Source: Bacilli bacterium
GTDB lineage: Bacteria > Bacillota_I > Bacilli_A > RFN20 > UBA1709
Direction: 5' to 3'
DNA length: 59,460 bases
Assembly (NCBI GenBank): GCA_045600465.1
Contig: JAZRXY010000005.1
Span: 1 to 59,460, forward strand
Below, piece by piece: positions 26,825-29,446 of this stretch (within the stretch, counting starts at the first letter, position 1; each line of letters opens with the position of its first letter). The position numbers were made by a program, and so were the translations under genes. Under the pieces are notes generated by a model. It had not been told where the DNA came from. It did no database searches and worked only from the letters and a program-made list of their open reading frames with translations.

Positions 26825-26848
26825 TATTTTATCACAATTGATAAAATA
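26825..26848. promoter_or_regulatory. Perfect 10-4-10 inverted repeat upstream of metG RBS
   Basis: TATTTTATCA-CAAT-TGATAAAATA. Confidence 0.35.
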
Positions 26849-27006
26849 ATAATAGTACACGCATATTAGATATAAATACATATTTATACACCTTTTTATT
26901 CCATTCCTCATACTTTTCCCTCTTTTTGTCCCACTTTGTATCACTTTTTACCGTTTTATCAATGTTTTTTTAATATTTTATCAAAACGTAAATTTTGTTT
27001 TTTTAT

Positions 27007-27035
27007 TTTACCAAACCATAAATTTGTGTTATAAT
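27007..27035 (+). promoter_or_regulatory. SigA-type promoter of the XRE gene
   Basis: TTTACC-17 nt-TATAAT with extended -10 TGnTATAAT (27027-27035). Confidence 0.6.
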
Positions 27036-27051
27036 ATGTTTGGGTGATATT

Positions 27052-27798
27052 ATGTACGATAAAAAAGTATGTATCAATAACATAAGATTTCTAGCTAAAA
27101 ATCAAAACATTAAACTTGGTTCTTTGGAAAAATCAATAGGTGTTAGTCCTGGCTATTTTTCAAAACTTGAAAAAGAAGGAAATTTAGCAAATCCCACAAT
27201 TGACCTTATTGTTAAAATATCAGAAATTTTTAAAGTTTCTGTGAATTCTATTATAGGGCCTTCTCTTACCGACCTAAATGCAAAAGAGTTAATTGTTCTT
27301 AAATTTCTATCTGCTTTAATCAAGGATTCGGAAGAATCCAAATTTCTGTGGATAAAAGATATAGAACCACACTTATCTGGTTCCAATTTTTTTGATGTCT
27401 TGGATGATTCTCCATACGCAGGGATCCTTAATAAAACAAGCATATATACAGGGGATTGTTGGATAAAAAAGTCCTCATGCATTTCCAAATTTAGAAAGGG
27501 AGAAACATCTATTGTCACCGGGGCTTGTTGCCGTTGCAATTTTGATGCAAATAAAACAATTCTTATTATTCCACTCTCAACTTATGAAGAGAATACTTTT
27601 TCATTTACTCATCCACGAATTGAAATTTATTTGCTTAATCCTTTTTGTTCGCCACTATGTGCTACAGGAGAAGAAACCTCTCCTGCAATAGTAGAATTAA
27701 TTGAAGTATTGTATAAAAAAGCGTGCGAATCTACAAAAAATATTATGCTAGATTCAAAATTAGAAAAAGATATTGTTTCTTATCTTAATAATAAATGA
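27052..27798 (+). CDS. XRE/Cro-family HTH regulator with large uncharacterised C-terminal domain
   Basis: N-terminal IRFLAKNQNIKLGSLEKSIGVSPGYFSKLE...IVKISEIFKVSVNSII matches HTH_3 pattern; ATG 27052 behind GGGTGA. Confidence 0.8.
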   Translation: MYDKKVCINNIRFLAKNQNIKLGSLEKSIGVSPGYFSKLEKEGNLANPTIDLIVKISEIFKVSVNSIIGPSLTDLNAKELIVLKFLSALIKDSEESKFLWIKDIEPHLSGSNFFDVLDDSPYAGILNKTSIYTGDCWIKKSSCISKFRKGETSIVTGACCRCNFDANKTILIIPLSTYEENTFSFTHPRIEIYLLNPFCSPLCATGEETSPAIVELIEVLYKKACESTKNIMLDSKLEKDIVSYLNNK

Positions 27799-27837: not shown

Positions 27838-27978
27838 ATGAAAAGAGAAAAAAATCTTGCTTATTGTTGGCCCAACAAGCAAGATACACTTACAGATTTT
27901 GCATCTGTTAAACGTAACTTCATTATGCATCATTCTGTAAAGTTTGACAAGTCTTACTTATTATTTAAAGGAGAGTGA
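27838..27978 (+). CDS. Small 46-aa protein of unknown function (MKREKNLAYCWPNKQDTLTDFASVKRNFIMHHSVKFDKSYLLFKGE)
   Basis: Near-perfect RBS AAAGGAGGTGA just upstream of ATG; stop lies 4 nt before the next start; below the ORF-track length cutoff. Confidence 0.7.
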   Translation: MKREKNLAYCWPNKQDTLTDFASVKRNFIMHHSVKFDKSYLLFKGE

Positions 27979-27982
27979 TGCA

Positions 27983-28642
27983 ATGAGTAAACTTAATGCA
28001 TCTAGAAACGGATGCAAAGACGTTTTTAAAGCGTTTCTCGTTAAAAACGCTTATTATGATGGAAAGCTTGAGATTCCTGTATGTGCGTCTTGTAATTATA
28101 TTCCAAACAAATTAATCTCTTTTTCAAAGTGTCTTTCCACCACCGATTATGACCAATGGGTTCATTTCTATGAGGACGATTGTCAATTTGAAAGGGTTTG
28201 GAACAACCCGGAAAGATATTTACCGATTCTCAAACGATTTAAAGGAGTTATTGCTCCTGATTTCAGTGTTTATAGAGATTTTCCTTTAGTACTGCAAGCC
28301 TGGAATTGTTACAGAAATAGAGCGATTGCTTTTTGGCTTCAAGAGCATGGTATAAATGTAATTGTTAACGTGAGATGGGCCGACGAAAGAAGCTATGATT
28401 TTTGTTTCAGTGGTATCTCAGTTGGCTCAACAATAGCAGTCGGATCATACGGAAATATCAAAGTAAAAGATGACAGATTTTATTTTGAGCAAGGATTCAA
28501 GAGGCTCGTAGATATTACTCGTCCAAAGACTATTATATCTTATGGGCAATTGCCATTAAATTTGTTAGAGTTCTGCAAAGAAAGAGACATCAATGTTGTT
28601 TGTTTTAAACCGGAATTTGTTGTTTCAAGGGAGAATTTATAA
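27983..28642 (+). CDS. DUF4417-like domain protein
   Basis: VHFYEDDCQFERVWNNP, GVIAPDFSVY, WNCYRNRA, G+NVI.NVRW, STIAVGSYG pattern recognised as DUF4417; start reassigned to ATG 27983 behind AAGGAG. Confidence 0.8.
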   Translation: MSKLNASRNGCKDVFKAFLVKNAYYDGKLEIPVCASCNYIPNKLISFSKCLSTTDYDQWVHFYEDDCQFERVWNNPERYLPILKRFKGVIAPDFSVYRDFPLVLQAWNCYRNRAIAFWLQEHGINVIVNVRWADERSYDFCFSGISVGSTIAVGSYGNIKVKDDRFYFEQGFKRLVDITRPKTIISYGQLPLNLLEFCKERDINVVCFKPEFVVSRENL

Positions 28643-29046
28643 TGGGCGGCGGTTATTTTGGTGGTTTCGGGCACACAAAAGGAAGTAATTTATCGATTAA
28701 GCTTCCTTCTAAAACTAGTTATGATTCTTCTCCGTTGGAAAAAAGCGAATTGCCAACCTCCTCATCACAATTAAACCATATCTTTAGAAACAAGGAGGGT
28801 CATCTTCCAAAAACGGCGGAAAATATGGAAAAAATCTTGAAACTTGCTAATGACCCTTCAGCAATAAGAAGAAAAGATGCTAAAGGAAATGTGTGGGTGA
28901 CAAAAGAAGAAAATGGGCAACAATTATGGGCGCGAATAAGAAATGGCATTATAAACAATGCCGGTATCAATAAAAAGCCTAGATCTTGGGACTCATCAAC
29001 AGGTTTAAATAAAAATCCTTTTAAAAATAAAAAGGGAGGTAAATAG
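28642..29046 (+). CDS. Putative toxin: Gly-rich N-terminal leader, Ser-rich linker, basic nuclease-like C-terminal domain
   Basis: MGGGYFGGFGHTKGS leader; HIFRNKEGHL...GQQLWARIRNGIINNAGIN..PRSW pattern recalls polymorphic-toxin C-termini; TAATG coupling to upstream gene; function inferred. Confidence 0.55.
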   Translation: MGGGYFGGFGHTKGSNLSIKLPSKTSYDSSPLEKSELPTSSSQLNHIFRNKEGHLPKTAENMEKILKLANDPSAIRRKDAKGNVWVTKEENGQQLWARIRNGIINNAGINKKPRSWDSSTGLNKNPFKNKKGGK

Positions 29047-29047
29047 T

Positions 29048-29368
29048 ATGTTTAGTAAAAAAGACTTATTTATAATGTTGTTTTATTGTTTTGATTCTTT
29101 GAGTGAAAGTCACAACGATGAGGAATTAAATGAATTTCTAAGTGATGCAAACCCTTTTGTTTTCACCGATCGATGTTCAGCCGACCCTTCAATTTATGAA
29201 GAATTTGACAAAGCTATTACCCAATTGTCTTTTATAGATTTTGGATATTCTAATGTAAAAAGTTTTCTTGAAAAGCACCACCCTAATTTAGTAAAAATCT
29301 TTTTAGAAACAAACGAGGATAACTGGCAAGCAGCCTTTAAAGAATACTTAAACTCAAAAGATAATTAA
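29048..29368 (+). CDS. Putative immunity protein (acidic, 106 aa)
   Basis: Starts 1 nt after the putative toxin stop, strong RBS; FLSDANPF..SADP motif; acidic composition; function inferred. Confidence 0.5.
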   Translation: MFSKKDLFIMLFYCFDSLSESHNDEELNEFLSDANPFVFTDRCSADPSIYEEFDKAITQLSFIDFGYSNVKSFLEKHHPNLVKIFLETNEDNWQAAFKEYLNSKDN

Positions 29369-29380
29369 TTGGTAAAAACT

Positions 29381-29436
29381 AAAAAGCGAGGTTGCTTGAA
29401 ATTGTTTTGTTATCAACAGTTTCTCCTCGCTTTTTT
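29381..29436. terminator. Composite bidirectional terminator between cassette and aminopeptidase gene
   Basis: AAAAAGCGAGG ... CCTCGCTTTTT outer stem enclosing GAAATTGTT/AACAGTTTC inner stem. Confidence 0.7.
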
Positions 29437-29446
29437 GTCTTTTTAT

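Follow-up and report, generated by a model that had tools for sequence, protein, structure and literature searches.

A DUF4417 protein as candidate tag-recognising partner of exchangeable toxins in a polymorphic-toxin-like cassette

What does a DUF4417 protein do when its gene lies directly in front of a small toxin gene? This question is raised by a 59,460-nucleotide stretch of a Bacilli bacterium genome (contig JAZRXY010000005.1 of assembly GCA_045600465.1; hereafter the window), in which positions 27983..28642 of the plus strand encode a protein of 219 aa. An earlier note on this DNA suggested that the product is a DUF4417-like enzyme, possibly with a barrel fold and acting on nucleotides or nucleic acids, that modifies the leader of the neighbouring toxin, activates the toxin or marks self DNA or RNA. 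We followed up these suggestions with profile searches, locus comparisons and structure prediction.

The family assignment made in that note was confirmed. The Pfam search that it had called for returned PF14386 (DUF4417) with E = 4.6e-62 and 209.2 bits (cut-off 28.9), the window protein covering model positions 3-170 of 183, and PHROG families 8680 and 940 matched at 2e-62 and 5e-53. NCBIfam and PADLOC held no match to the protein. A ParB/Srx-like N-terminal domain is absent, as Pfam gives DUF4417 alone, with 24 residues preceding the domain. We take the ATG at 27983 as the start codon because homologues begin at the same place, opening with MSK.N.TRSGCKDVF (compare MSKLNASRNGCKDVF in the window); a longer, TTG-started open reading frame from 27944 was rejected on the same ground. 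Together with the alignment and the AlphaFold2 model described below, these matches identify the gene as the putative constant partner gene of a cassette.

A word-indexed protein search gave 724 relatives at E ≤ 1e-5 among 786 candidates scored. The closest (53-59% identical) belong to Clostridia of the gut and rumen and to other Bacillota, and DUF4417 matches occur in 503 phage records, including well-studied mycobacteriophages and streptococcal phages. Some matches in related small genomes (three were noted) contain in-frame TGA or TAA codons, and these may be either pseudogenes or signs of an alternative genetic code. The two motifs picked out from the letters alone, HFYEDDCQF (residues 61-69) and PDFS (residues 92-95), proved to lie within columns that are invariant family-wide. 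All 24 listed family-wide invariants are kept in the window protein (H61, F62, D65, D66, F69, E70, P76, P92, F94, S95, D99, P101, Q105, N108, Y110, R111, Q120, G123, G144, G157, G171, P181, Y187 and G188), and the extended motifs HF[YF].DD..FE and PDFS.Y.D.P...Q.WN.YR are retained across an alignment of bacterial, streptococcal, lactococcal and mycobacteriophage members. The window copy is nevertheless an outlier of its own clade, with Y156 and N158 where 63 of 64 cassette-clade relatives have H and C.

The next gene (28642..29046, plus strand) encodes a protein of 134 aa, and the proposed translational coupling to it was borne out. At the junction, TTA TAATG (TTATAATG), the ATG at 28642 shares one base with the DUF4417 stop codon, and this one-base overlap recurs in 59 of 80 genomic DUF4417 loci (59 of the 72 in which the next gene carries the tag described below). 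Homology likewise upheld the suspicion that the downstream product is a toxin. An exhaustive HMMER search found 945 relatives, and residues of about 33-128 (28738-29025; invariant H46, H54, N61, D79, G82, Q94 and W96) align with the extreme C-terminus of far longer proteins that carry Rhs repeats, PT-HINT or Phage_min_cap2 (MuF). Such placement is the signature of the C-terminal domain of a polymorphic toxin, as read from sequence. The domain itself had no match in Pfam, nor in the PDB by sequence, and Pfam placed no Phage_Mu_F or Phage_min_cap2 domain in any of the five cassette proteins. What the earlier note called the leader of the toxin is a conserved element, an N-terminal tag of 14 residues (MGGGYFGGFGHTKG, 28642..28683) for which a consensus could be drawn across 68 distinct cassettes.

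The third gene (29048..29368, plus strand) encodes a protein of 106 aa. We assign it as the cognate immunity gene because it is homologous to genes that follow toxins with the same domain: a gene directly after a MuF toxin (E = 1e-16), a gene directly after an Rhs toxin (E = 1e-4, that gene being cut by the contig end) and a gene of a DUF4417 cassette of a second clade with the same toxin domain (E = 3e-12). Across cassettes the immunity gene co-varies with the toxin class. These homologies leave the putative toxin and immunity assignments well supported.

The complete cassette is a plus-strand insert of five open reading frames between two minus-strand genes, metG and one for an M29 aminopeptidase, and related cassettes occupy unrelated chromosomal contexts. 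Between the cassette and the convergent aminopeptidase gene lies an inverted repeat (AAAAACTAAAAAGCGAGG / CCTCGCTTTTTTGTCTTT, 29374..29442) that is likely to be a bidirectional terminator. Taken as a whole, the cassettes have a constant N-terminal region followed by unrelated C-terminal domains, a toxin domain common to other delivery classes and a co-varying immunity gene directly downstream, as polymorphic toxins do. An N-terminal domain tied to a delivery machine was not found; the constant region is the 14-aa tag only, and it contains no Pfam domain.

The association between tag and DUF4417 was close in both directions. We fetched 80 genomic loci solely by their DUF4417 similarity, and in 72 of them the gene that follows is tagged. 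The tagged genes encode proteins of 113-186 aa whose C-terminal parts fall into at least 11 unrelated classes, and behind each class stands a small gene of its own; the tag consensus is MG[AGT]G[FYI]HGGFG.T.G (68 distinct cassettes). In the reverse test, a scan of metagenomes for the DNA pattern of the tag, 70 of 82 matches lay within 60 nt after a DUF4417 open reading frame. Five others had DUF4417 elsewhere in the locus (for example, in tandem cassettes) and three had no room upstream, so that 70 of the 79 matches with room upstream lay directly after a DUF4417 gene. DUF4417 was missing from four of the 82, three of which were truncated toxin stubs of 29-35 aa.

The tag appears to be selected as a peptide. 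In 68 distinct tag DNAs the encoded residues G2, G4, F9 and G10 never vary, and H6, G7, G8, T12 and G14 hardly do (residue 6 is H in 62 of 68, and F in the window). Third codon positions have an entropy of 0.8-1.8 bits, and first and second positions are invariant at the invariant residues. Because third positions are free and the amino acids are fixed, selection acts on the peptide and not on DNA or RNA, and this synonymous variation led us to reject the idea that recombination or coupling maintains the tag as a DNA element.

The toxin domain of the window is found both behind the tag described here and behind a second tag, ..SGLFHGTSGSP, that follows a different DUF4417 clade. By this comparison of loci, the tag stays with DUF4417 and not with the toxin. 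When the three tag types are mapped on a FastTree tree of 243 DUF4417 sequences, two changes suffice, the minimum possible; label shuffles on the same tree required 55-63 changes in five printed of 200 run. With non-random sampling, the tree shows co-inheritance of tag and DUF4417 while toxin domains move, a result that speaks of descent and not of contact. Further tag variants, MATKGASYRYGNTKGSNH, MGRYKNSGLAHGTIGSPQ and MMGGGAGGNFGNTYG, follow other DUF4417 clades at six loci, some of them from relatives of the genome that holds the window, and their sequences suggest that the variants share a common core, [FYH]-G-x-[TS]-x-G.

A zinc site formed by C11, C142, H156 and C158, which are conserved in the cassette clade and missing from the phage clades, and pairing with His6 of the tag was considered and rejected for lack of consistent covariation: H156, C158 and His6 are all lost in the window, and other cassettes with Tyr6 retain H156 and C158. 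We count the loss of H156/C158 and the F6 of the tag in the window copy against tag recognition by DUF4417. The cassette-clade motif G-S-H-G-C (DUF4417 residues 153-158) resembles the G-F-H-G-G of the tag, both being specific to the same clade, and MAFFT placed short tag fragments on this motif; the likeness is probably due to chance.

No fusion of DUF4417 to a tagged protein was seen despite the gene overlap, and the longer database entries that looked like natural DUF4417-toxin fusions were set aside as artefacts of upstream start codons. At one locus (L027), the DUF4417 stop and the toxin ATG are in frame and 18 nt apart, so that reading the TAA as Gly gave a tethered fusion of 340 aa with a 7-residue tether. 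AlphaFold2 folded both domains of this fusion well and gave residues 216-241, including the tag, pLDDT < 50 (about 30 for the tag). The alignment comprised DUF4417 homologues, two further in-frame fusions and toxins of the same class, was unpaired and shallow for the tag, and yielded a monomer model judged by its pLDDT, which as weak evidence gives no support for a stably docked tag. The earlier suggestion that the protein acts on the toxin leader thus stands as a near-obligate association in both directions that is clade-specific and under peptide-level selection; what failed to appear was a docked tag in the tethered model.

Structure prediction gave the protein itself an enzyme-like appearance. 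The AlphaFold2 model (47 sequences) had a pLDDT of 88.8 and a pTM of 0.87, and consists of seven alternating beta-alpha units in which the conserved motifs directly follow strands. TIM and Rossmann-type folds usually have their active site on this side, just after the strands. In the model, these post-strand polar residues are H61, D65, D66, E70, D93, S95, D99, Q105, N108 and R111, of which D93 is replaced by N in one phage. The model looks like a TIM barrel without known relative, and it agrees, as a prediction, with the barrel-like alpha/beta fold and enzyme-like invariant polar residues anticipated in the earlier note.

Structure searches gave this fold no significant neighbour outside its own family. 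Foldseek against the PDB returned no match with E < 0.009, and its weak matches were TIM barrels (transaldolase, HpcH aldolase, RPE and EAL). Against BFVD, significance was confined to DUF4417 homologues; phage TGT/DpdA-like proteins appeared with E = 0.017-0.06 and TM scores of 0.37-0.49. TGT was absent from the PDB structure matches and from a profile search of PDB sequences with DUF4417, which gave noise only. The similarity to the TIM barrel of TGT is therefore not significant and does not place DUF4417 among the TGT/DpdA base-exchange enzymes. Of the modelling proposed in the earlier note, a confident barrel-like model was obtained and a significant neighbour among solved structures was not. 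Its suggestion of a nucleic-acid enzyme found no significant match, either to a solved structure or to a known nucleic-acid enzyme.

Phage relatives show a related arrangement. In phages, the DUF4417 gene is often fused to ParB and immediately precedes terS and terL. Of 80 viral loci, 69 have one to three genes behind DUF4417 whose products start with MGGRG[AS]SSG, and second and third tagged genes stand in tandem behind a single DUF4417, which indicates that one DUF4417 can serve several tagged genes. Some phage tagged proteins have a Prp-type pre-leader (NLQFF|GGRG..., for example MKLNIQLF|GGRGASSG), and cutting these proteins at that point would leave the GGRG N-terminus that removal of Met also gives. 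A MuF-family protein is encoded in 27 of 34 fairly complete DUF4417 phage records, the published base rate being 611 of 1845 phage genomes (PMC5576092). A complementary distribution of DUF4417 and MuF was rejected, given that these 27 phages have MuF, including long forms. The link is not obligate either, because mycobacteriophages lack MuF.

The repertoire behind the tag is varied. Pfam searches with ten toxin classes gave only DUF6883 (two classes) above the gathering score, and SprT-like and JAB matches fell below the cut-off. A JAB/MPN-like HxHx7Sx2D motif was observed in several genes downstream of DUF4417, including ORF29 of Streptococcus phage MM1 and toxins of two further types, and HExxH metallopeptidase motifs occur in others (for example, in Bactobuster gp2 and the 'AHELNHARS' class), so that nuclease-like proteins make up only part of the cargo. 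The Prp-type cleavage motif LNLQFF|A is found in ribosomal protein L27 of Firmicutes. It stands just behind the tag in the toxin class 'LNLQFFA..VF.KGGH' (six loci), where host Prp could remove the tag. The motif thus lies before the GGRG tag in phages and behind the tag in one cassette toxin class.

No delivery machine is evident in the host, because the genome bin (0.93 Mb, 88% complete) contains no match to Phage_portal, TerL_ATPase (PF03354) or WXG100. The bin does contain a decayed second cassette (contig C8, 13006-13650, equivalent to 1444-2084 of locus L176), in which an 87-aa DUF4417 stub with a basic tail is followed by an open reading frame of 126 aa. The latter bears a weak resemblance to the immunity proteins that go with '..VHVKEK' toxins (E = 6e-5 against a small database) and has the appearance of an orphaned immunity gene. 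Its survival in the absence of a toxin may be a hint, and only that, of toxins arriving from outside. The decayed copy adjoins a defence-like pair consisting of an AAA-ATPase gene and a gene for a 211-aa partner.

Two elements upstream of DUF4417 may control the cassette. The first gene (27040..27798, plus strand) encodes an XRE-HTH regulator of 252 aa (HTH_3, E = 5.8e-5; PHROG 8, transcriptional regulator, 2e-9; PADLOC matches HTH_VI and capH-like) whose C-terminal domain of about 180 aa is without assignment. In related cassettes this position holds HTH_3 or HTH_31 proteins with or without Peptidase_M78 (ImmA), and in other loci unknown proteins. Direct repeats (TTTTTACCGTTTTATCAA / TTTTTAATATTTTATCAA) and inverted repeats (TTGATAAAAT...ATTTTATCAA) at 26945-26984 and 26838-26859 lie just upstream of the promoter-like site of the XRE gene (27007-27035) and are possible operators.

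The second element is a predicted cis-antisense small RNA of about 70 nt (27845..27950 on the minus strand with its promoter, the RNA itself running from 27915 to 27845), complementary to the 5' leader of the DUF4417 mRNA and recognised by its promoter, terminator and conservation. In the window its promoter has a -35 element TTGTCA at 27950-27945 and a -10 element CATAAT at 27927-27922, and its terminator is a 13-bp hairpin at 27885-27854 followed by a T-run. At 61 of 64 related loci the minus strand carries a hairpin with a T-run, located 100-150 nt before the start of DUF4417. Besides the -35 element, the aligned minus strands share an extended -10 element, a first hairpin and a terminator whose loop is conserved. 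Compensatory changes occur in 13 of 14 terminator pairs, and Rfam has no family for this RNA. A 46-aa open reading frame with a strong Shine-Dalgarno sequence (27838..27978, plus strand) overlies this region and has no family match. Among 64 related loci plus the window, an open reading frame of at least 25 aa ending near the DUF4417 start is absent in 28, and the rest have mostly unrelated sequences there. The 46-aa frame is thus probably not a conserved protein gene, and we rejected it as a conserved leader peptide, the conserved element being the RNA hairpin. From these sequence features, the putative antisense RNA and the XRE regulator would together control the operon.

We compared the cassette with known systems. 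Polymorphic toxin systems include Rhs, CdiA, LXG and MafB (Zhang et al. 2012, PMC3482391, as cited in PMC5576092). Like these, the cassette combines a constant N-terminal part with swappable C-terminal domains and a downstream immunity gene, occurs in orphan and tandem forms, and has its toxin domain and immunity family in common with Rhs and PT-HINT toxins. It differs from them in that the constant part is 14 residues long, without signal peptide or known trafficking domain, that the conserved partner is a separate, translationally coupled DUF4417 protein, and that no linked secretion system was found. The MuF toxins of temperate phages (Jamet et al. 2017, PMC5576092) are similarly phage-linked and mostly from Firmicutes and have the same toxin-immunity pair (one locus encodes a Phage_min_cap2-toxin protein followed by an immunity homologue), and the packaging and head gene block is also where the DUF4417 modules of phages are found. 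Unlike MuF toxins, the cassette toxin is a free, small, tagged protein unfused to a head protein, and chromosomal cassettes are without surrounding phage genes. That paper does not mention DUF4417, ParB or the glycine tag. ParB-DUF4417 fusions, described as enriched in phages and prophages (bioRxiv 10.1101/2025.10.10.680097), have the DUF4417 domain in common with the window protein, which differs in having no ParB domain; the preprint gives no DUF4417 function and no toxin or tag link. Our literature search found neither a link of DUF4417 to toxins or the tag nor a description of the cassette, which is widespread and apparently undescribed.

Effector adaptors of type VI and type VII secretion systems (Eag/DUF1795, DUF4123 and Lap) are the products of small conserved partner genes and recognise a conserved N-terminal element of their effectors. 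The DUF4417 gene resembles them as a small conserved partner gene beside polymorphic toxins with a conserved N-terminal element. It differs in having no sequence or fold relation to Eag/DUF1795, DUF4123 or Lap, in its enzyme-like character and in the lack of a linked secretion apparatus.

We favour, with about as much doubt as belief, a reading in which DUF4417 is the tag-recognising constant partner, as adaptor or enzyme, of a new class of polymorphic-toxin cassette. The proposed cassette has three genes, in the order DUF4417, tagged toxin and immunity protein, and would be controlled by the XRE-type regulator and the cis-antisense RNA. The 14-residue glycine-rich tag stays with DUF4417 while unrelated toxin domains, with their own immunity genes, are swapped in behind it. 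DUF4417 and the tag fill the place that in other toxins with this toxin-immunity pair is taken by Rhs shells, by PT-HINT regions or by MuF, a phage head protein, and for this reason we infer that DUF4417 physically recognises the tag. It would bind or chemically process the tag, probably at a free N-terminal glycine, and thereby route, load or mature the toxin, presumably for delivery. The invariant H, D, D, E, S, D, Q, N and R at the strand ends of the TIM-barrel-like model point to a possible enzyme; we consider it equally likely that DUF4417 serves as an adaptor or loader.

Three other explanations have to be set against this reading. DUF4417 could be a nucleic-acid enzyme, such as a nuclease or a base-exchange or DNA/RNA-modifying enzyme, with the DNA of phages or of the cell as its substrate. 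The tagged proteins would then be recruited to this nucleic acid or simply be operon-mates, and the marking of DNA or RNA would be the real function. Its phage relatives are often fused to a ParB-like domain and lie beside terminase genes, PHROG 940 is labelled nuclease, the weakest but recurrent structural matches include phage TGT/DpdA-like and other TIM-barrel nucleotide enzymes, and the conserved acidic and Arg residues would suit phosphate or metal chemistry. However, the TGT-like matches were not significant (E ≥ 0.017, TM ≤ 0.49), no PDB match passed the E-value given above, and the nuclease label stems from the ParB part that the window protein does not have. The idea of marking self DNA or RNA draws its sole support from the ParB fusions in phages. 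Nor would a nucleic-acid enzyme by itself explain a tag that is near-obligate and clade-specific, and we regard this explanation as possible but unlikely. The idea that the tag is no protein-level signal but a DNA or RNA element, kept as a recombination site or for coupling while DUF4417 has an unrelated role, agrees with a tag that starts exactly at the overlap with the DUF4417 stop codon and with exchange breakpoints just behind it. We consider it highly improbable given the almost saturated third codon positions of an otherwise invariant peptide; moreover, phages also make the GGRG N-terminus behind Prp-type leaders, away from the start codon, and second and third tagged genes in tandem do not overlap DUF4417.

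The cassette might instead be an inducible intracellular defence of the abortive-infection or toxin-antitoxin type, in which DUF4417 senses or regulates and holds or releases the toxin through its tag, with no delivery to other cells. The XRE regulator with or without ImmA and the cis-antisense RNA resemble control regions of defence systems and of type I and III toxin-antitoxin systems, secretion or virion genes were not found in the genome bin, and the decayed second copy adjoins the AAA-ATPase defence-like pair. Yet this toxin-immunity pair also travels with Rhs and MuF delivery proteins, a diverse toxin and immunity repertoire and a toxin-less immunity-like gene are both typical of toxins that act between cells, and the phage versions lie in a packaging module; we judge this explanation unlikely. 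A more specific and quite unlikely form of the tag-recognition reading makes DUF4417 a protein-processing enzyme of a new kind. Once Met removal or Prp-type cleavage has freed the N-terminal glycine of the tag, the enzyme would use this glycine to link exchangeable toxins covalently to a carrier, for instance a virion component, DNA or an envelope molecule. If this were true, ligation-based toxin delivery would be common to cassettes of gut Clostridia and to streptococcal, lactococcal and mycobacterial phages, and chromosomal cassettes might hitch-hike on helper phages when the XRE/ImmA switch fires.

Tag recognition by DUF4417, the reading we favour, would give a large family without assigned function a testable role, through a transferable tag that is found on dozens of toxin and enzyme families. 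It would also define a compact class of polymorphic toxins in gut bacteria. The comparison newly annotates a putative toxin domain and immunity family common to Rhs and MuF toxins, together with a predicted, conserved antisense small RNA. Should the tag prove to be a handle for loading or ligation, it may provide a simple genetic tool for directing cargo.
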